Shown piece after piece: positions 18,591 through 57,299 of a stretch of 64,000 nucleotides of DNA (positions within the stretch are counted from its first letter, which is position 1; each line of letters opens with the position of its first letter). Under the pieces are notes generated by a model. The model saw only the letters and a program-made list of their open reading frames with translations. It was not told where the DNA came from and did not search any database. The position numbers were made by a program, and so were the translations under genes. Location of the stretch: assembly GCA_027053075.1 (NCBI GenBank), contig JALUEE010000078.1, forward strand, positions 43,573 through 107,572, in the 5' to 3' direction. The DNA is from a candidate division WOR-3 bacterium (GTDB taxonomy: Bacteria; Hydrothermota; Hydrothermia; B15-G9; WFZT01).

Positions 18591-18623
18591 GGCGGGCCCA
18601 CGCACGAAGTGCGTGGGCCCGCC
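18591..18623. repeat. GC-rich palindrome (REP-like)
   Basis: 15-bp stem, CACGCAC-GAA-GTGCGTG core. Confidence 0.85.
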
Positions 18624-18770
18624 GAAGCAATTCCAATAACCTTAAAAAAAAGACATACTGGATGGGACCAGGGCTTCTGGCAAATTGAAAGAGCAATAAA
18701 TATGGGGTCATTAATCTTCCACGAAGATTTTTTGTGGTCAACTCAAGGCAAATGCATTAAAATGATTGAT

Positions 18771-19223
18771 ATGAGAAAATTTCTAATTGGTGGCATAGTA
18801 ATTCTGCTTCTTACTTCCTGCACGGCAGTGAGACAGGTCGTGGCTATTAAAGACCTGAAGATTAAGTTTCAAAACGTGGAGCTGGCACGCATAACCTTAG
18901 AAGGGGTGGACCTGAACCTCAACTTTAAAGCCTACAATCCAAATAGAGTGAACGCAGTACTCTCTGGATTTGCCGTTGATATATTTGCCAACAATATGAA
19001 AGTAGGAAAAGCGACCCTCAATAAAACCCTGAAAGTCCCTGCCGGTGGTAACGCAACCTTCACCATTCCCCTTCATCTGAGCTGGAGGGAGCTTTCTAAT
19101 TCTCTCTCAAATGCAATAAGGAAAAAATCCGTTACCTTTCGCGCCACAGGTTATGCTTTGATAAATACCCCACTTGGCAAACTCCGTTTTAAAGTCGCTG
19201 ATTACACAAGAGAGATCAGGTAG
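18771..19223 (+). CDS. LEA type 2 / WHy-domain lipoprotein
   Basis: Lipobox LTSC, YNPN motif. Confidence 0.8.
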   Translation: MRKFLIGGIVILLLTSCTAVRQVVAIKDLKIKFQNVELARITLEGVDLNLNFKAYNPNRVNAVLSGFAVDIFANNMKVGKATLNKTLKVPAGGNATFTIPLHLSWRELSNSLSNAIRKKSVTFRATGYALINTPLGKLRFKVADYTREIR

Positions 19224-21031: not shown

Positions 21032-21170
21032 GGGATAAAAAATACACTTAAACCTATTTCTCCACCACCCACAACAGATACGAGCTAAAATTTTATCAAC
21101 CATATCTTGACAGATTTTATCAATCAGATTACTTATAAAACATAATAAGACTATTAGGAGGTTTTTAGAT

Positions 21171-21863
21171 ATGAGCGTTCTGGAACTTAGAGAATTACAG
21201 GCATTGAACACCCTTGTCTTCGAGACCCTTGGACAGCCAGAGAAGGAGAGAGAATTCAAATTCAAATCTCTCAAGAAATGGGGTCTGGATTTGATTTTGG
21301 GTAAAAAGGGAGGGAAAACCACGTATTTTGTCGCTGAGTATGGGAAAAGGAAGTTGGGTGATATTTATGAAGAAAGCGGTGTTAAATACGAAGTTGACGA
21401 GATCCTTTACGAAATGCCCAAAAATAAGAGGTTATTTGCCCACATTGAAATGGAGGACGGTAGAGCCTACCTTGTTGGTCAGCTCAGAGAAGGAGATGAA
21501 AACATCGAAATCCTTAGGTTACCCGCTGCATCACTACTTCTTGCCTATTTCAAAAAGCACAGGTTGCACCACTTGATCGAGGCAATGAGAAATGTTGGAA
21601 CAGCTACGGAGTTGGTTAAGCAAAGAGGTCAGGAGGGAAAGCCATATCCATTCAGCAAATTGCCCAATGTAGCAAGAAGATTCCTGAGAGAAGCCAAGAA
21701 AATCGAGCGCGAAGCAGGATTTGGAAGAGTCGCACTTGCATACTACGGTGAAAACAAGGACGGAGATGCAAGATTCAGAGTCTCATGGTTACTCCCAACC
21801 ATTGCTCTCTTTGAAATCGATATCGCGGAGAAGGCAGACAAAATCCTTGGAGCTTTCAAGTAA
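21171..21863 (+). CDS. Hypothetical protein (first gene of prefoldin operon)
   Basis: 230-aa ORF with AGGAGG RBS. Confidence 0.8.
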
Positions 21864-21864
21864 G

Positions 21865-22584
21865 ATGGAACTTCTTTTCTGGACACCTGTTTTATACTCA
21901 CGTAAGGGTTTCCCGAGGGACGAGGAGGGCAACCCTTTTATTGAAGGAAAAGTCATTGAAGAGTCCATTACTTCGGCCCTCATTTTTTATCACATAAAAA
22001 AGGACAAGCTCCTCGAAAATCAGATTAAAAAGCTCCTCATGGAGCTTTCACCTCGTGATGTGATGCCCATGGTGAAGAAATTGATATTTGAAAAATACAA
22101 TCTGCACTCTCTTTTGACTTTACCCGATAGAATTCCTCTAATTGGTGGTAAAATCTACAAAACTCCCGTTGATGTAATGGACCTTCAGACGTGGGACGAG
22201 GTGGATTCATTTATAGGAGAGGTCTTCGAGGGTATCCTCAGAATACCCGTCGAATCTGAAAAGCTGGAGCTTATCATGGCAGCCGGACATTCATACACAG
22301 AAGCCCTGCTCAAAATGGAGATGGAGCTTTTAGGTGATCATCCACTGGTAGAGACCTTCTACATTCCCATGATCAATGAGGTCAAGAAATGGGAAATCCC
22401 ACTCAGGACAGGGTGGTGGACCGTGGAAAAATTTAAGGGAAATCTTCTCTTCTTCTGGAGGGTTAAGGAAATAAGAGAAAGATTCTTGCGCGAATTTAAG
22501 CTGGATATAAGGCCACAGAAAATCCTCTTTCTCCCACGGGAGGGGGTGACGGCAGGATGGGCAGAACTTAAAAAGGAGGTGTAA
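21865..22584 (+). CDS. Hypothetical protein with degenerate Csm5/RAMP-like motifs
   Basis: GNPFIEGKVIEESITSALIFY, LRTGWW and terminal GWAEL resemble Csm5 motifs by eye. Confidence 0.5.
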   Translation: MELLFWTPVLYSRKGFPRDEEGNPFIEGKVIEESITSALIFYHIKKDKLLENQIKKLLMELSPRDVMPMVKKLIFEKYNLHSLLTLPDRIPLIGGKIYKTPVDVMDLQTWDEVDSFIGEVFEGILRIPVESEKLELIMAAGHSYTEALLKMEMELLGDHPLVETFYIPMINEVKKWEIPLRTGWWTVEKFKGNLLFFWRVKEIRERFLREFKLDIRPQKILFLPREGVTAGWAELKKEV

Positions 22585-22587
22585 GTC

Positions 22588-23046
22588 ATGGCAGCAAAGA
22601 AAGAAGTAAAAAAGGACGACAAAAAAATGGCTGAACTCAATAGGGAGCTGAGAAGCTATATAAACCAGATAGAAACACTCAGGGTAAATATTACAAACAT
22701 TGATGCCCTGATTTCGGAGTACAGGACAACCATAACAACCCTTCAGAACCTGAAAGACCTTGGTAAAGGTAAAGAAGTGCTCCTGCCTGTAGGAAGGATT
22801 GCACAGGTTAGCGCGAAATTAGAGGCAGTTGATAAAGTAGTGGTAAGCATTGGAAGCAGCATATCTGTCGAGCTCACATTCGACGAGGCCGTCAAGCAGA
22901 TCGAGAAGGAAATCTCAGCTCTAATACTGCTCAGACAGGCACTTGAGAAGACGATGGTAGAGCTCTATGGGAAAGTGGAAGAATTAACCCAGAAGATAAG
23001 AGAACATGGAAGAGAAGAAGCAACAGCAGAAGAAGGAAAGAAATAA
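22588..23046 (+). CDS. pfdA: Prefoldin alpha subunit
   Basis: Coiled coil - EVLLPVG...DKVVVSIGSSISVE (two beta hairpins) - coiled coil. Confidence 0.85.
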   Translation: MAAKKEVKKDDKKMAELNRELRSYINQIETLRVNITNIDALISEYRTTITTLQNLKDLGKGKEVLLPVGRIAQVSAKLEAVDKVVVSIGSSISVELTFDEAVKQIEKEISALILLRQALEKTMVELYGKVEELTQKIREHGREEATAEEGKK

Positions 23047-23173
23047 GTGGATAGAGGAATTTATCTCAAAGTTGCCAGAAGGCAGAAAAATTTACTACCG
23101 ATTTGGGAATCTTATGGTAGAGGTGTCTCGCAAGGAGGCACTGGAACTCATTAAAAAGGAGGAAAAGAAATGA
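23006..23173 (+). CDS. 55-aa prefoldin-beta-like mini protein (not in ORF track)
   Basis: MEEKKQQQKKERNKWIEEFISKLPEGRKIYYRFGNLMVEVSRKEALELIKKEEKK; stop overlaps next start (ATGA). Confidence 0.65.
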   Translation: MEEKKQQQKKERNKWIEEFISKLPEGRKIYYRFGNLMVEVSRKEALELIKKEEKK

Positions 23174-23643
23174 GGAAACCAGGAACTCTCATAGTGATTG
23201 TTACAATTGTCGCGCTGGCTCTCGGATGGGTGATCGGTGGATTTTTCACCAGCACCTCGGTGGCAAAAGCAATTGCATCCATCCCTGCGTCTCCGATAGT
23301 TGTGGATGCCAAGTACAAAAGAGACCAGCATACAATTGAATATTCAATGCTAAATCCAGGAGGGATGCCCCTCACCATTGTGCAGGAATCTTTTGTCTTC
23401 ACACCCGGTAAAGAGACTAAAGAGAAGAGCTACATCGTGTCCAACGTACCTGTCAACGTAAAACTGCTTCCCGGGGTGATTACAAAAGTTGAACTTAAGC
23501 TCAAACCCGGAACCGAGAAACTCCAGCTCGGAGACGTGGTACTTGCTACCTTTGCCTACCATCATCCTCTTTCAGAGGACCTTTATACGGTGGTTCACTC
23601 GTTTACCATGGAAACAGCAGACACCACTGGAGGTAAGAAGTAA
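23170..23643 (+). CDS. Membrane-anchored/secreted beta-rich hypothetical protein
   Basis: N-terminal hydrophobic segment; translational coupling. Confidence 0.75.
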   Translation: MRKPGTLIVIVTIVALALGWVIGGFFTSTSVAKAIASIPASPIVVDAKYKRDQHTIEYSMLNPGGMPLTIVQESFVFTPGKETKEKSYIVSNVPVNVKLLPGVITKVELKLKPGTEKLQLGDVVLATFAYHHPLSEDLYTVVHSFTMETADTTGGKK

Positions 23644-24167
23644 TGAAGGGTGAAAGAGTCCTGTGGTGGATATTCTTTGTAGTATTCGTTGCCTTCCTGA
23701 TTTTCGGTACTCTCGTGTTCACTGCTACGATCATAGCAAATCCTGTTGCAGCAACATTCTTTCTGGGTCTAACAGGTTTCTGGCTCTTTGCCAATAGACT
23801 CATATTCGGTTTCGCAGGAATCACAAACACCGCAAATCAGGTTGCAAAAGGAGAGGAAGTTGACAGGAAAAAATTGGCCTCGTACTCAAAGGAACCTGAA
23901 GAAAGGACAAGGGAGCTCAGTCTGGTTTCGCTTCTGATCCTCTGGAGAAATGCTCTTGAACCTTACAGGTACGCTTACTACTTCGCATTCTTTATAGTGT
24001 TCATCATCGCAATGCTTTTCCAGCTAAATATAATCCAGTCATACGTAGGAGTGATAGCGAAGTCCATCATGTTCGGTGCATCCGTGCCAACGCTGATAGT
24101 GTGGGTACTTGACATATTTTCACGTGCTTACTTAAACGGAGCGATTAAGGCTTCAATGGGGGCCTAA
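23643..24167 (+). CDS. Integral membrane hypothetical protein
   Basis: About four hydrophobic helices; TAATG overlap. Confidence 0.75.
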   Translation: MKGERVLWWIFFVVFVAFLIFGTLVFTATIIANPVAATFFLGLTGFWLFANRLIFGFAGITNTANQVAKGEEVDRKKLASYSKEPEERTRELSLVSLLILWRNALEPYRYAYYFAFFIVFIIAMLFQLNIIQSYVGVIAKSIMFGASVPTLIVWVLDIFSRAYLNGAIKASMGA

Positions 24168-47204: not shown

Positions 47205-47342
47205 ATGTATAGAGTGCTATCACTGCAAAGAATGGGAACGAGAGTAATGAATGACGATAATGGCGGGTGTCACGGAAGCTGTATGAGTTATCTCTTCTGT
47301 TCAACTCTGAGTATAGGTTGTGGACGGGGACGTGGAAAGTAA
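47205..47342 (+). CDS. Class III lanthipeptide precursor A1 (45 aa; not in ORF track)
   Basis: MYRVLSLQRMGTRVMNDDNGGCHGSCMSYLFCSTLSIGCGRGRGK; AAGGAGGT RBS; LxLQ leader; two S-x-x-S-x(2-3)-C motifs. Confidence 0.92.
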   Translation: MYRVLSLQRMGTRVMNDDNGGCHGSCMSYLFCSTLSIGCGRGRGK

Positions 47343-47345
47343 AAA

Positions 47346-47382
47346 TATGGTGCCGAGCACCCTGCGGGTGCTCGGCACCATA
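47346..47382 (+). terminator. Stem-loop between precursor and lanKC
   Basis: 17-bp perfect stem, TGC loop; no U-tract on + strand, so probably an mRNA stabiliser or attenuator. Confidence 0.6.
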
Positions 47383-47402
47383 AAAACCTGACTAAAGCTA
47401 CC

Positions 47403-50003
47403 ATGTACGAACAGATTGACCTTTTTCAGTTTATTATTCTGAATAGTGATTTTTATATTCCTATTGACTATATTGAGTGCGGAGAAAATTACAAACAGAT
47501 TGTTAAATCTCATCTAAAACTGGGATGGCATTTAGAAGATCAGGGTATCTGGACCTTCGTATTTAACGAAGCGAATGAGTTCCCCGAGCAGGGCTGGAAA
47601 ATTCATATATCAGCTATTCCCCAAAATGCCGGAGAAATCCTGCAAAAGACAGTTCCAATCCTTGTTTCAAATAAGGTAAACTTCAAATTTGCCTGTAATG
47701 AATTTGTGCTAACTCTCTTGAACTCCAAAAATTGGAGTCGAGGAGGGAGTGGAAAGTTCATTACTATCTATCCCCCTGAGAGATTATTCAAGCCACTTAT
47801 CCAGGAACTTTACAACGAATTACACAGTTATATGGGCCCCTATATTCTGTCAGATATGAGATATAGAGACGCTAAGGTGATTTACTATCGTTATGGTGGA
47901 TTTCAGCCGATGGAAAAGTTGACGGTCGAGGGATACAAAATTTCGCTTATCAAAACTCCCGAAGGAGAATTCATACAGGACAATAGACCTCCATTCTATA
48001 ATCCTCCACCATGGGTAAAAGACCCTTTTGGTCAAGAGCCCAGGTATGAGGAGAATATTCTCCTGAATAATAGGTATAAAGTCCTATTCCCCATCTCGTT
48101 TTCCAATTCAGGAGGTGTATATAAAGCAGTTGATACTTTTAATAATCAGGAGGTTATCCTTAAAGAGGCAAGGCCGTTTGTTAACCTTCAGGAGAATATA
48201 TCCGCAAAGGACCTTCTTGAAAAAGAATTTGAAATCCTCAAAAGAATCGAGGACCTTGGTATAGCTCCAAAACCGATTTCGTATTTTAAAGAATGGGAAC
48301 ATTTCTTCCTTGTTGAGGAATTTATTAAGGGGATGGATTTGAGAGAATATGTTGTCGTTAATTCTCCCATATTGAAAACCAATCCAGAGTTTGAAGACTA
48401 CAAAAATTATTTCCGGTCGTATCGGAAGATATTTCTTAATCTCATTGACTCTATCGAGAAATTGCACAGTAGGGGAATTATTTTCAGGGATCTATCACAT
48501 AATAACATCATTATTCAGGATGACCTTAGTGTTAAGTTGATAGATTTTGAGAGTGCCTATCTGATGGGAAGTGACAGGTGGATTCAAATTTTCACTCCAG
48601 GGTTTGCCTCTCCCAACCAGATATTGAATGAAATGCCAGAATTTTCTGACGATATCTATTCAATTGGTGAAAACATGATGGCCGCGATATTCCCCATAAA
48701 TCAATTTTTCTCACTTGCTCCCGATGCACGCGATAGATATTTGAAGGACATTATTGTTGATATGAATTTCCCAACAAAATTAAAGAAAATAATCAGTATC
48801 AGCACCAGTGGAGATGACCGCGTTGATTTGAGGTTTCTAAAATCCAGTTTGAGAAAACTTCGATTCCCTAAGCCTTTTAAAAGACAAACAAGCGTACTTA
48901 CAGATGCAGAGATAAACAGGATAATAAAGGGTATAAGGAAGTACCTTTTCAATTCCAACAAGTGGGAAAGGGAATTGGGAGCTCCGTTTCCTCTTTACGC
49001 TGAAGCATACATGACAAATATTTACAGTGTTGCTTATGGTATTAGCGGGATTTTGCTGTCTATGCTGAAATGTGGCTTTTCACCACACAAAAAGCAACTT
49101 GAGTGGTTTGTAAATCAGGATTTTGATGAGAGAGACATTCCACCTGGCCTTTATATTGGGCTTAGTGGGATTGCATGGACACTTCTGGAATTAGGGCACG
49201 AAGAGCTTGGAATTAAAGTATTCGATAAAGCCTTATCCCATCCCCTTGTATCGGATTCAGTTGATATGTTTTACGGTATGGCAGGAATTGGAATCACCAG
49301 CCTTCAGTTTTATCACAAATTCAAGGAGGACATTTATCTTTCCCACGCGGTGCAACTTTCAGAGATGATTTCCAATAAGCTTGAGGAGGCTGACAATTCA
49401 CTATATTTCAAGGGAACAGATGGTGATGTTCATTACGGATATGCACATGGTGCTTCAGGTGTCGCACTTTTCATGCTTTACTTATATTTAGCAACAAGAG
49501 ATGAAAGATTTTTAAACCTATCTCAAAGGCTCATGGATTTTGACCTCTCTCATGCTGTTGATTACAAAGATGCAATTTCATGGCATCCATCTAAGGAGCA
49601 CAGTTCCACTGTAATGCCATACGTAAAGTATGGAACCTCTGGAATTATTTCTGTGTTGCTCAGAATTAATCAGGTAACTCCTTTCAAGCAAGAATATATA
49701 CACAAAGGTTTACAAGATATAACAAGAAAGTATGCCATATTCCCTGGACAACTTAATGGATTATCCGGAATGGGAGAGACTATAATCGACGCGATGCCTT
49801 TTAAGGGAAACCTTGATAACCATCTCCAAAGGCTAATAAAAGGTGTGTCTTTGTTTATGATAAAAAGACCCGAAGGCATCACTTTCCCTTCAGACGGACT
49901 ATTTCGCATAAGCTGTGATTACGGTACAGGGTGCAGCGGAATTATGTCTTTTCTTTGCAGGACTATTAATAGGGATAAACGGTTGCTCTTTGATCTCGAA
50001 TGA
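47403..50003 (+). CDS. lanKC: Class III lanthipeptide synthetase LanKC
   Basis: Lyase (QGWKIHIS, SGKFITIYP, YYRYGGF), kinase (SNSGGVY, LKEARP, RDLSHNN, IDFE), cyclase-like domain without obvious Zn-ligand motifs, RISCDYGTG. Confidence 0.95.
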   Translation: MYEQIDLFQFIILNSDFYIPIDYIECGENYKQIVKSHLKLGWHLEDQGIWTFVFNEANEFPEQGWKIHISAIPQNAGEILQKTVPILVSNKVNFKFACNEFVLTLLNSKNWSRGGSGKFITIYPPERLFKPLIQELYNELHSYMGPYILSDMRYRDAKVIYYRYGGFQPMEKLTVEGYKISLIKTPEGEFIQDNRPPFYNPPPWVKDPFGQEPRYEENILLNNRYKVLFPISFSNSGGVYKAVDTFNNQEVILKEARPFVNLQENISAKDLLEKEFEILKRIEDLGIAPKPISYFKEWEHFFLVEEFIKGMDLREYVVVNSPILKTNPEFEDYKNYFRSYRKIFLNLIDSIEKLHSRGIIFRDLSHNNIIIQDDLSVKLIDFESAYLMGSDRWIQIFTPGFASPNQILNEMPEFSDDIYSIGENMMAAIFPINQFFSLAPDARDRYLKDIIVDMNFPTKLKKIISISTSGDDRVDLRFLKSSLRKLRFPKPFKRQTSVLTDAEINRIIKGIRKYLFNSNKWERELGAPFPLYAEAYMTNIYSVAYGISGILLSMLKCGFSPHKKQLEWFVNQDFDERDIPPGLYIGLSGIAWTLLELGHEELGIKVFDKALSHPLVSDSVDMFYGMAGIGITSLQFYHKFKEDIYLSHAVQLSEMISNKLEEADNSLYFKGTDGDVHYGYAHGASGVALFMLYLYLATRDERFLNLSQRLMDFDLSHAVDYKDAISWHPSKEHSSTVMPYVKYGTSGIISVLLRINQVTPFKQEYIHKGLQDITRKYAIFPGQLNGLSGMGETIIDAMPFKGNLDNHLQRLIKGVSLFMIKRPEGITFPSDGLFRISCDYGTGCSGIMSFLCRTINRDKRLLFDLE

Positions 50004-51508
50004 AAAGATTGTATAGCATAATAAAACCTTTTGAGAGAGGATTTTGGGGACTTGTCCTGTATTCTCTAATTTTAAACATCTTTACTCTTTCAAATCCTCT
50101 TGTCTTAAAGTTCATATTTGACGAGGGTATCAAAGGGAAAAACCTTAGACTGTTTATTTTACTGGTTTCTATATTCATTTTTGTCTCGATATTCTGGAGA
50201 GTTTTAAATTACCATTACTCTTTGCTTCTGGAAAAATTCAAAATACGGGTTACAAAATACTGGCTTAAGAATACGATAAATGCTTTTCTAAAGAGGCCCT
50301 ACAAAGAAATAATCACAAAAGATTCCGGATATTATCTCTCGAGAATTTATGAAGAACCTGAATCACTGAGTAATGAGCTTGTTTCCGGTGCTATTGATGC
50401 TATAAATCTGGGGATTGGCTTGATTTTATCCCTGGCACTCCTGTTGTATTTTTCTGTCTATGCTACCCTCATCCTTTTTCTGATTATTCCCGTGACATAT
50501 TTTTTGTCCTCTTATTTTTCGCAAAAAATTAAAGAATATACTGACAAGGAGCGAGAGAGTGAAGCTAAATTAAGAGAAACGATAACTGATGTAATACGGT
50601 CTGTTAAGTTTATAAAATCTTTCCAGTTTCATGATTTTATAGTCGGCAAGTTTATAGACAGATTGTCTAAATTCTTATCCATCTACTTAAAAAATTTCGA
50701 ATATGCTACGGGTTTTGATACGCTAAGCTCTATATTTTTGTCTCTTTCTGAACTATCGGTGATTATAGTTAGTGGCTATTTAATGATAATCGATAAAATG
50801 ACGTTTGGTAGCTTCATGGGATTTATGAACACTTTCTGGGGGTTTATTGGTGCAGTCCAGAGATTTATAGGAATAATCCCGGAAATCGCTGGGGCAATGG
50901 CTATTTATGATAGGCTTGAAAACTTTATAAACGTGCAAAATGGCCGAGCGGTGCAGTTTGGTGAAAAAATTATTTTGAAAAATGTAAGTTTCTCTTACGA
51001 TGGGAAATCTCGGGTGTTAGACAATTTCTCACTGATTATTAATCCTGGTGAGAAAATCCTCATACTTGGAGAGAATGGCAGCGGAAAAACCACCCTTGCC
51101 AATATAATCTCTGGACTAATAATACCTGAGGGGCAGGTCACCCTTCTCAAGAAAGTAAGCTTGATGCCAGATAATCTCCCCTCATTAAGACTTCGCGAGT
51201 ACGCTGTTCTGGACGAAAGAAATAAGTTTTTTGAGTTAATAAAGCTTTTTCAGTTAGAGGATTACCTTGATAAGACACCAGGGGAGCTCTCTATGGGCCA
51301 GAGGAAGAAGTTCACAATCACACTTACCCTTATAAGAGATGCTGATATCTATATTTTTGATGAGCCACTTGTAAATCTCGATAGTTTGAGTAAAAATTTA
51401 GCAATGGATTTGATTTTTGAAAATACTTATCGCAAAACACTTATCATAATAAGCCACAATTCTATTAAGAATAGATTTGATAGGGTTATAAAACTTGAGA
51501 GGAGGTAA
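50000..51508 (+). CDS. ABC exporter (fused TMD-NBD), probable lanthipeptide transporter
   Basis: TM domain plus GENGSGKTT, LSMGQ, FDEP; ATGA overlap with lanKC; no C39 domain. Confidence 0.9.
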   Translation: MKRLYSIIKPFERGFWGLVLYSLILNIFTLSNPLVLKFIFDEGIKGKNLRLFILLVSIFIFVSIFWRVLNYHYSLLLEKFKIRVTKYWLKNTINAFLKRPYKEIITKDSGYYLSRIYEEPESLSNELVSGAIDAINLGIGLILSLALLLYFSVYATLILFLIIPVTYFLSSYFSQKIKEYTDKERESEAKLRETITDVIRSVKFIKSFQFHDFIVGKFIDRLSKFLSIYLKNFEYATGFDTLSSIFLSLSELSVIIVSGYLMIIDKMTFGSFMGFMNTFWGFIGAVQRFIGIIPEIAGAMAIYDRLENFINVQNGRAVQFGEKIILKNVSFSYDGKSRVLDNFSLIINPGEKILILGENGSGKTTLANIISGLIIPEGQVTLLKKVSLMPDNLPSLRLREYAVLDERNKFFELIKLFQLEDYLDKTPGELSMGQRKKFTITLTLIRDADIYIFDEPLVNLDSLSKNLAMDLIFENTYRKTLIIISHNSIKNRFDRVIKLERR

Positions 51509-55712: not shown

Positions 55713-57299
55713 ATGCCATTCATCAGAGAAATCACTCATAAAAGAAAATCCGGCAAAGAGGTAACATATATCCAAATCGTCCACTCTTACAGAGTCGGCA
55801 AAAAAGTTAAACAAAAAATCATCGGTACCCTCGGCAGAAAAGACCAACTCCTGAAATCCGGCTCCCTCGAAAGATTGGCCTATAAACTCCTGGAGATAGC
55901 TGGTAAGCTTGAGGAGTTTCAGAACGAGAGGAAGGGGATGCCAAATCTTTTCCTCAAGGATGCGAGGGAGATGGGAAGGGCATATCTTTTCAAGTATCTC
56001 TGGAAGAAGGCAGGGTTACATAAATTTTTCAGGAGAGTAGCGGAGAAGGAGGGATTGAGTTTTGATCTTTCGGAGGCGATATACGAGATGGTGTTGAACA
56101 GGATAACAGAGCCGACGAGCAAGAGGAGACTGTTTATGGAGTGGAGGGAGGAGCATGATCTGGAGGATAAGGGGTTGGAGCTACATCATTACTACAGGGC
56201 ATTGGATTATCTTGTGAGAGTGAAGATGACACTTGAGGATTATTTGTACATGAGGGGAAGGGATTTATTTTCAGGGCCACCGAAGGTGGCATTTTTTGAT
56301 ACGACGTCGACATATTTTGAGGGTGAGGGGCCGGAGGGATTGGCGGAATATGGATACAGTAAAGATAAGAGGCCGGACAGGAAGCAGGTGGTGATAGGGG
56401 TGGTATTGGGGGAAGGGGGATTGCCGATATATCATAATGTATGGGAGGGTTCGCAGATGGATTTGGTGAGTTTTCGGGGTGTGTTGAGGGAATTGAGGGA
56501 AAGGTGGGGATTAGAGGAGGTGATATGGGTAGCGGACAGGGGATGCGTATCACCGGGGTTGCTGGAAGTATTGGATAAGGAGGGGATAAAGTATGTAGTG
56601 GGGGTAAAGATGAGGAAGGAGAGGGAGGTAAGGGACGAGGTATTAAGTAGAGGTGGGCGTTATAGAGAGATGGATGGAGGGTTGAAGGTGAAGGAAGTGA
56701 GGAATGGAGGGCACAGGTATGTGGTATGTTATGATCCGGTGACGGCGGAGAGAGACAGGAGAGTAAGGGAGGAGATAATAGAGTCGCTGGAGGATGGGTT
56801 AAAAGGAAAGGGGATGGGGGTGATACAGAAGGGATATAGAAGATATTTGAAGAAGGGTGGAGGAAGATATGAGATAGACAGGGAGAAGGTGGAGAAGGAG
56901 TCGAGATACGATGGGAAGTGGGTATTGAGGACGAATGTGGATTTAGAGACGGAGGAGGTAGTGAGGGTATACAAGGATTTATGGAAGGTGGAGAGGGCAT
57001 TCAGGGACATGAAGGATGTGTTAAAGATAAGGCCGATATATCATTGGAAGGAAGAGAGGGTGAGGGGGCATATAATGGTGTGTTTTTTAGCGTTATATTT
57101 AATGCAGTACCTGGAGTTCATGATGGGTGAAGAGAAGGGTGAGGTGGGGAAGTTGATGAAGGCGATGAGGAGGTTGAAGGTAGGGGAAGTGGAGCTGAAT
57201 GGTAGGATGTACAGGGTAAGGACGGAGGTGGATAATGAGGTAGAGGGGATGCTGGGGCGAATAGGGTTGAAGTTACCGCCATTGATACGAGCCATGTAA
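55713..57299 (+). CDS. IS1634-family DDE transposase
   Basis: FFDTTSTYFEG, GYSKDKRPD, VADRG, Y..LW.VERAFR..K, RPIYHW. Confidence 0.93.
   Translation: MPFIREITHKRKSGKEVTYIQIVHSYRVGKKVKQKIIGTLGRKDQLLKSGSLERLAYKLLEIAGKLEEFQNERKGMPNLFLKDAREMGRAYLFKYLWKKAGLHKFFRRVAEKEGLSFDLSEAIYEMVLNRITEPTSKRRLFMEWREEHDLEDKGLELHHYYRALDYLVRVKMTLEDYLYMRGRDLFSGPPKVAFFDTTSTYFEGEGPEGLAEYGYSKDKRPDRKQVVIGVVLGEGGLPIYHNVWEGSQMDLVSFRGVLRELRERWGLEEVIWVADRGCVSPGLLEVLDKEGIKYVVGVKMRKEREVRDEVLSRGGRYREMDGGLKVKEVRNGGHRYVVCYDPVTAERDRRVREEIIESLEDGLKGKGMGVIQKGYRRYLKKGGGRYEIDREKVEKESRYDGKWVLRTNVDLETEEVVRVYKDLWKVERAFRDMKDVLKIRPIYHWKEERVRGHIMVCFLALYLMQYLEFMMGEEKGEVGKLMKAMRRLKVGEVELNGRMYRVRTEVDNEVEGMLGRIGLKLPPLIRAM

Follow-up and report, generated by a model that had tools for sequence, protein, structure and literature searches.

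We describe here an operon of six open reading frames (ORF1 to ORF6; Table 1) from a candidate division WOR-3 bacterium (assembly GCA_027053075.1), located in a stretch of 64,000 nucleotides, hereafter the window (G000:C78:43573-107572), of a 2.44 Mb genome that is 95% complete. The operon is part of a real, conserved and uncharacterised module, which combines a gamma-type prefoldin and a very short beta-prefoldin (mini beta) with a UPF0128 protein, a protein with the predicted fold of Csm5 and two predicted membrane proteins.

Coupling, selection and recurrence of the six genes

The six ORFs occupy positions 21171-24167 of the plus strand with successive gaps of +1, +3, -41, -4 and -1 nt, in agreement with the tight coupling noted in the first-pass annotation of the window. 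The start of ORF2 was assigned to the ATG at 21865 according to the starts of its homologues; the mechanically called ORF opens at a TTG at 21721. Ratios of non-synonymous to synonymous substitution rates (dN/dS, pooled unsaturated pairs) were 0.03, 0.08, 0.09, 0.17, 0.14 and 0.10 for ORF1 to ORF6, based on 5-31 unsaturated pairs per gene from 16-19 homologous loci that are related to one another and, for ORF4, on the stretch of the window outside the ORF3 overlap. All six are genuine ORFs, closely coupled and subject to purifying selection, and ORF1 is the most conserved of them. The G+C content of the operon, overall and at third codon positions, matches that of the neighbouring genes. Misbinning was rejected; it is unlikely because the cassette is also present in four of the five other genomes of the host genus, and the base composition fits that of the neighbours.

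For an overview of gene order we tallied 93 loci, leaving out short duplicates, the host's own loci, loci with a canonical alpha subunit and loci without a match; the set is not fully one locus per genome, and many loci end at contig edges. All six genes were present in 24 loci, 16 with the exact order of the window (two with ORF6 cut off), six with an added YfdX gene and two in a permuted order ending in DUF505, which includes a complete genome (G226). The six-gene order proposed at first reading therefore recurs elsewhere but is no fixed unit: 28 different orders were found, prefoldin is optional, DUF505 and YfdX occur in the same neighbourhood, and 29 loci carry UPF0128 alone. YfdX was found in 12 of the 93 loci, two of them without prefoldin. 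Adjacency of ORF1 and ORF2 is the commonest link, and several phyla have this pair with none of the remaining four genes.

A gamma-type prefoldin coupled to a mini beta

ORF3 matched PF02996 (E 1.8e-22) and TIGR00293 (E 3.6e-27) above both the Pfam and the NCBIfam cut-offs. Its best match in the structure database was PDB 6vy1 (115.8 bits, residues 14-149, E 1.8e-32), the gamma-prefoldin of Methanocaldococcus jannaschii ('prefoldin subunit alpha 2') and its nearest solved relative. Canonical alpha chains of the PDB scored 38.8 and 36.7 bits and two canonical archaeal alphas 19-22 bits, compared with 76-84 bits for Thermococcus alpha homologues; the 84 bits belong to P0293 of T. kodakarensis, which we infer to be the Thermococcus alpha2 paralogue. 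Judged by these scores ORF3 is of the gamma/alpha2 type and nearest to the M. jannaschii protein, so that the earlier label 'prefoldin alpha' was right as to prefoldin and has to be corrected as to the subunit type.

ORF4 covers positions 22-72 of the 106 of PF01920 and, with 27.5 bits, just misses the cut-off of 27.6. The ORF4 profile had its best PDB match in 3aei (prefoldin beta subunit 2; E 2.7e-7), as against 0.007 for the canonical beta 2zdi_A, which upholds the beta identity assigned in the first-pass annotation. The protein has a hairpin core with short helices and, by profile comparison, is a 55-residue beta-prefoldin remnant closest to Thermococcus beta2. Its homologues range from about 50 to 99 residues, some Aquificota copies having 90-99. 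No full-length beta was found in the host genome, where ORF4 was the best beta-prefoldin match and none exceeded the PF01920 cut-off. A mini beta was present in 36 of the 38 loci with a gamma-type alpha (one miss lies at a contig end) and directly followed gamma in 33, the underlying profile having been made from 14 mini-beta sequences.

The predicted complex of two ORF3 chains and one ORF4 chain scored 0.41, compared with 0.00 for the best control, which weakly supports an interaction; at least 97% of the contacts agreed between runs and the partner pLDDT (predicted local distance difference test) was at least 74. The mark applied was passed by 116 of the 157 solved pairs and by two of the 215 mismatched ones. 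At 0.60 or under it was reached by only 18 solved pairs and both mismatches, and a pass at the 0.41 level is wrong more often than right unless the pairing is likely beforehand. The pass may be due to resemblance to alpha-beta prefoldins of known structure.

The M. jannaschii gamma-prefoldin is reported to be induced 26-fold by lethal heat shock and to form filaments in vitro and in cells without binding canonical alpha or beta, and its role in its host was still called unclear in 2024 (PMC11117396). These filaments grow through two beta-sheets, and engineered subunits with one sheet cap them (PMC4895442). Filaments and heat induction are features reported for the archaeal protein. ORF3 differs from it in being bacterial, in having a host in which only GroEL was found and in being coupled to a mini beta within a six-gene operon. 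The heat-induced alpha2/beta2 prefoldin of Thermococcus (beta2 being 3aei) resembles both ORF3 and the ORF4 profile, but its beta2 has 99 residues, compared with 55 in ORF4, and the WOR-3 host has no detected thermosome. In contrast to the canonical archaeal alpha2-beta4 prefoldin, neither a full-length beta with long coiled coils nor a group II chaperonin was detected. Prefoldins were described in a 2021 review as absent from conventional bacteria, and client binding as depending most on the beta coiled coils (PMC8567396).

The first-pass annotation had pointed to a group II chaperonin as the usual partner of prefoldin. None was found in the 95%-complete host genome, whose sole chaperonin match is one Cpn60, a GroEL encoded next to GroES. 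Since only GroEL/GroES was found, the classic prefoldin-thermosome pathway does not apply here.

A Csm5 fold without CRISPR next to UPF0128

The predicted model of ORF2 (pLDDT 94.4) had its top Foldseek matches among chains of Csm complexes (E 1.7e-6), including the crystal structure 6ldn of T. onnurineus Csm5. With 6mur_F, a chain named Csm5, 221 of the 239 residues were aligned (VIA Z 16.1; root-mean-square deviation 3.0), whereas the best RAMP chains not of Csm5 size gave Z 7.5 or less. The model thus has a Csm5 fold, which bears out the earlier description 'Csm5-like' at the level of predicted structure and not of hidden Markov models (HMMs): ORF2 itself had no HMM match, TIGR01899 included, and 7 of 41 members of the ORF2 family matched TIGR01899 weakly (best 23.7 bits, cut-off 38.3). 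A search of 1.84 billion representatives with the ORF2 profile returned 39 proteins, and the strong matches were all without Csm5 length. ORF2 is shorter than Csm5 chains (about 290-380 modelled residues) and has a net charge of -3, and the glycine-rich loop, measured against the Csm5 motif, is shrunk to LRxGxW. The protein therefore resembles Csm5 of type III-A CRISPR-Cas (TIGR01899; 6mur_F, 6ldn) in fold but differs in being shorter, only 18% identical, under the HMM cut-off and without adjoining cas genes or array.

No cas genes or CRISPR array lie beside the host operon; no HMM scan for cas genes was made of the homologous loci. There was no Rfam match in the 64-kb window, and repeats near the operon were short and chance-like, with no repeat family. 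CRISPR arrays and RAMP genes of the host sit on other contigs (C47, C99, C57), the RAMP genes being apparently Cmr-type by reading of their ORFs.

ORF1 is a full member of UPF0128/TIGR00703 (PF03673, E 1.2e-97; TIGR00703, E 5.2e-99), a family that is named yet uncharacterised. Its first description as an unknown protein of 230 residues consequently holds for its function only. One search gave 191 clusters of homologues. The predicted model (pLDDT 96.4) had no Foldseek match at E<=0.001; its best VIA match (Z 5.2) covered residues 90-230 only, weak ferredoxin-like matches fell in the C-terminal part, and residues 1-89 were hardly covered by the structure comparison. Weak matches to type III secretion chaperone folds (Z 4.1-4.6) were at background level. 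Profile comparison of ORF1 with ORF2 gave a probability of 0.2%. An Atlas search with ORF1 gave no usable match, and sequence-only PDB searches with ORF1, ORF2 and ORF5 were uninformative. Divergent second copies of UPF0128, which are solitary, occur in several Aquificota genomes (L085, L086, L087, L103).

We take COG1851 to be the same family as UPF0128. COG1851, which came to light via the gene context in Aquifex, has been reported to be a RAMP without a link to CRISPR (PMC1462988), and is likewise mentioned as a RAMP outside CRISPR (PMC3150331). In contrast, no RAMP was among the 50 VIA rows for the ORF1 model, and the adjoining ORF2 is the one with a predicted RAMP fold. If COG1851 is UPF0128, the RAMP fold would belong to the neighbour ORF2 and not to ORF1.

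The predicted membrane proteins ORF5 and ORF6

Hydropathy analysis showed one N-terminal hydrophobic segment in ORF5, and the alignment a conserved soluble domain. Two long hydrophobic stretches in ORF6 fit a protein with about four helices. Both patterns agree with the anchored protein and the protein of about four transmembrane segments proposed in the first-pass annotation. From the basic residues before the helix, the soluble domain of ORF5 is probably located outside the cytoplasm. ORF5 had no match in Pfam, NCBIfam or PDB, its Atlas matches being under 0.9 and leads only, and no family match was found for ORF6. ORF6 usually lies directly 3' of ORF5, and this order is kept where the pair relocates. 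A gene for DUF1931, which we take to be a histone-fold family, lies directly 3' of the ORF5-ORF6 homologues in one genome and directly 5' of UPF0128 in another (L128:5587-6243; L101:3409-3864). In one lineage, as well as in a Thermotogota record, ORF6-UPF0128 is preceded by a tetratricopeptide repeat (TPR) protein in place of ORF5 (L030:4469-5470, L039, L065).

Co-occurrence and horizontal transfer

Among 121 Aquificota genomes, UPF0128 was found in 36, gamma in 37 (one further match at E 8e-4 was dropped as noise), ORF6 in 33, DUF505 in 52 and thermo_KaiC_2 in 108. UPF0128 and gamma occurred together in 36 genomes, gamma alone in one and UPF0128 alone in none; ORF6 was present in 29 of 37 gamma-positive compared with 4 of 84 gamma-negative genomes. 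The 41 relatives of the host contained UPF0128 in 14 cases, DUF505 over the cut-off in 21 and gamma in 5, all of the host genus. DUF505 was present in all 50 UPF0128-positive genomes (36/36 and 14/14) and, without the module, in 15-16 of the 121 Aquificota genomes. Prefoldin is thus an optional part of the module and DUF505 a wider partner. Among 151 sampled genomes of the host phylum, ORF3 was matched at E<=1e-8 in the host alone, and a 151-genome sample of an archaeal phylum had UPF0128 in three. The genomes counted are kin and not independent, and the drafts are incomplete.

DUF505, which has weak winged-helix matches, adjoins UPF0128, mini beta, gamma, ORF5/ORF6 or YfdX in different genomes. 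In the host it is encoded on another contig, after genes for thermo_KaiC_2 and a near_KaiC protein and before an SDH-family Clp-fold protease (Table 1), and it links this cluster (TIGR03878, TIGR03879, PF04458) to the operon. However, thermo_KaiC_2 is far more widespread than the module, and because it is present in 108 of the 121 Aquificota genomes its co-occurrence says little. An uncharacterised protein of ~357 residues with a marginal Pfam match only follows DUF505 in two Aquificota genomes (L123:3770-4855, L134:7385-8479). In a genome without UPF0128 (G026) DUF505 is directly followed by cas6 (L140:5456-8416), probably a chance neighbour.

Among the named carriers of UPF0128 are Aquificota, Thermodesulfobacteriota, Deferribacteres, Bacteroidota, Thermotogota, Chloroflexota and Archaeoglobaceae, with identities of up to 90%. 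In the gamma tree, which has only two canonical outgroups and whose scope does not include the monophyly of gamma and alpha2, the sequences of the host genus grouped with Desulfurobacteriaceae in a 25-row clade (98/97). The UPF0128 tree, a quick tree with long branches, placed the host genus with Desulfurobacteriaceae and Thermodesulfobacteriota, apart from its own order and class (SH-aLRT 94). Horizontal transfer of the module among vent thermophiles, as suspected at first reading, is well supported by these trees and by the carriers in several phyla. The distribution suggests that the direction of transfer was into the host genus.

Promoter region and other features of the window

A likely -35 element ~60 nt upstream of the operon (Table 1) recurs letter for letter in 14 of the 27 upstream regions of homologous loci, and four further ones have TTGACT (counted by eye). 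The consensus promoter scan passed over this site, where there is no clear -10 box. The operon is flanked by a divergent uvrC on one side and a convergent gene for a tricorn-like protease on the other. Two genes ahead of the operon, past uvrC, lies a gene for a LEA_2-domain protein (18609-19223). Elsewhere in the window, a region of lower G+C content contains a class III/IV-type lanthipeptide cluster (47205-51508) with a RamC_N-kinase-LanC-like enzyme (47403-50003), an ABC transporter and a candidate precursor of 45 residues containing Ser, Thr and Cys (47205-47342). A DDE transposase gene is located at 55713-57299, with extreme GC skew (0.48).

Table 1. Features of the operon and the DUF505 cluster of the host; positions refer to the window unless a contig or locus is named.
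Feature	Position	Strand	Basis
TTGACA, likely -35 element of the operon promoter	21107..21112	+	Sequence
AGGAGG, ribosome-binding site of ORF1	21156..21161	+	Sequence
ORF1, UPF0128/TIGR00703 protein, 230 aa	21171..21863	+	PF03673 and TIGR00703 matches
ORF2, compact predicted Csm5-fold (RAMP/Cas7 group) protein, 239 aa	21865..22584	+	Predicted structure
ORF3, gamma/alpha2-type prefoldin alpha subunit, 152 aa	22588..23046	+	PF02996, TIGR00293, PDB 6vy1
ORF4, mini prefoldin beta, 55 aa	23006..23173	+	Part of PF01920, 3aei; 41-nt overlap with ORF3
ORF5, predicted N-terminally anchored membrane protein, 157 aa	23170..23643	+	Hydropathy, alignment
ORF6, predicted polytopic membrane protein, 174 aa	23643..24167	+	Hydropathy, alignment
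Genes for thermo_KaiC_2 ATPase, near_KaiC domain protein, DUF505 and Clp-fold protease, in a row	G000:C38, L051:6439-10867		

Proposed function and alternatives

The reading that we favour, although we would not yet call it probable, is that gamma-prefoldin and mini beta act as a thermosome-free, ATP-independent holding chaperone within a shared protein-protection module for heat or envelope stress. ORF3 would polymerise via two beta-hairpins like the M. jannaschii protein and bind unfolded proteins with its coiled coils. ORF4 would dock on the edge of a hairpin; as it keeps one hairpin and almost no coiled coil, it would cap filament growth rather than bind clients. The horizontally shared wider module would comprise UPF0128, the Csm5-fold protein, the two membrane proteins and DUF505 and would likely protect proteins. 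Its roles are suggested by gene context only: ORF5 and ORF6 may be a membrane pair that senses or anchors, and UPF0128 may be the conserved hub. The Csm5-fold protein may have been repurposed as an adaptor or binding subunit, and DUF505 may be a partner whose gene lies elsewhere in the host genome. A single membrane-linked complex of the six products and a role in stress, as put forward in the first-pass annotation, are likewise conjectural. YfdX has been described as periplasmic and chaperone-like, and its recurrence together with the protease beside DUF505 points to protein protection.

Several observations weigh against this proposal. ORF3 also resembles the second alpha of Thermococcus (84 bits) and ORF4 its beta2, two subunits that reportedly assemble into a hexamer of the ordinary kind (PMC8567396). 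In cells, gamma-prefoldin was reported to be spread through the cytoplasm and not at the membrane (PMC11117396). UPF0128 had no other part nearby in 29 of the 93 loci, including Methanocaldococcus-like contigs and second copies, and 9 of the 14 UPF0128-positive relatives of the host have no prefoldin. Since the genomes counted are related, co-occurrence is overstated. No HrcA gene was found in the host and no exact CIRCE, only three sites with four mismatches, none of them at the operon; hence there is no sign of any known bacterial control by heat shock. The host yielded no YfdX, and it is not obvious where a Csm5 fold would belong in protein quality control. The likelihoods that we attach to the holding chaperone and to the alternatives below belong to readings that partly overlap.

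Coupling of gamma to a beta with a single hairpin and hardly any arm is compatible with a natural cap, and also with a short-armed hexamer like Thermococcus alpha2/beta2. In that case, which we consider rather unlikely, ORF3 and ORF4 would form an alpha2-beta4 hexamer without filaments in the cell, and clients would be passed to GroEL or DnaK or held. The best structure match of the mini-beta profile, the score of ORF3 against P0293 (84 bits, compared with 22 for canonical alpha), the Aquificota beta copies of 90-99 residues and the weak pass of the ORF3-ORF4 complex, which agrees equally well, all speak for a hexamer. On the other hand, ORF3 is nearer to the filament-forming 6vy1 (116 bits), ORF4 spans only half of the Pfam beta model although the beta coiled coils are reported to matter most for clients (PMC8567396), and a search of the host genome brought up no group II chaperonin.

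It is also conceivable, but unlikely, that the core of the module serves signalling from membrane to cytoplasm, with ORF5/ORF6 sensing, UPF0128 and the Csm5-fold protein relaying and DUF505 with the KaiC-like ATPase responding; prefoldin and YfdX would then be dispensable outputs, and signals other than heat would be conceivable. The constant presence of DUF505 in UPF0128-positive genomes (overall frequencies 52/121 and 21/41), its varied adjacency to module genes and its position after the KaiC-like genes in the host are in line with signalling. However, in none of the six ORFs did we identify a catalytic or sensor domain, thermo_KaiC_2 is present in most of the Aquificota genomes (108/121), and DUF505 occurs there without the module as well.

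The 28 gene orders and the separate occurrence of gene pairs would be expected of a loose convoy of thermophile accessory genes, in which independent sub-modules (ORF3 with ORF4, ORF5 with ORF6, ORF1 with ORF2) share a promoter and travel together. We regard such a convoy as improbable, because these parts come together again and again in distinct orders and co-occur at genome level even when unlinked. Least likely of all, and in our view very doubtful, is a CRISPR-derived regulator or defence part in which RNA is the target of the Csm5-fold protein and UPF0128, which would bind it or recruit a nuclease, with the chaperone genes as passengers: the predicted full-length Csm5 fold of ORF2, the reported modulation of cellular nucleases by Csm5 (PMC5389561) and the occurrence of the ORF1-ORF2 pair without the other four genes in a number of phyla would suit it, but the surroundings of the operon offer no array, Rfam family or repeat family, ORF2 is short and has a net charge of -3 and a reduced glycine-rich loop, and the operon is under strong purifying selection with host-like G+C content.

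Going further than the holding chaperone, one may imagine that UPF0128, a CRISPR-derived Csm5-fold protein, DUF505 and the membrane pair constitute a machine with which vent thermophiles respond to stress, and that a prefoldin filament with its own natural cap is plugged into it as a thermosome-independent chaperone scaffold. We think this unlikely as a whole; if true, it would mean that a Cas protein was repurposed for a non-immune role and would provide the first natural length regulator of gamma-prefoldin.

Single genes of the module are already annotated, as 'prefoldin subunit alpha' in Desulfurobacterium records and as TIGR00703. Titles and abstract openings among the matches listed contained no account of the operon or of mini beta, in a search outside of which lie most subscription journals, including the original gamma-prefoldin papers; two supplementary files of the T. 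ammonificans paper gave 0 matches. ORF2 is a clear case of a predicted Csm5 fold that is kept under selection outside CRISPR, and it adjoins a highly conserved protein without a clear structural relative. A natural cap would matter to filament engineering, which now relies on designed caps (PMC4895442). The operon offers candidate partners for gamma-prefoldin in cells where only GroEL was found, and thus its job becomes testable apart from the thermosome.

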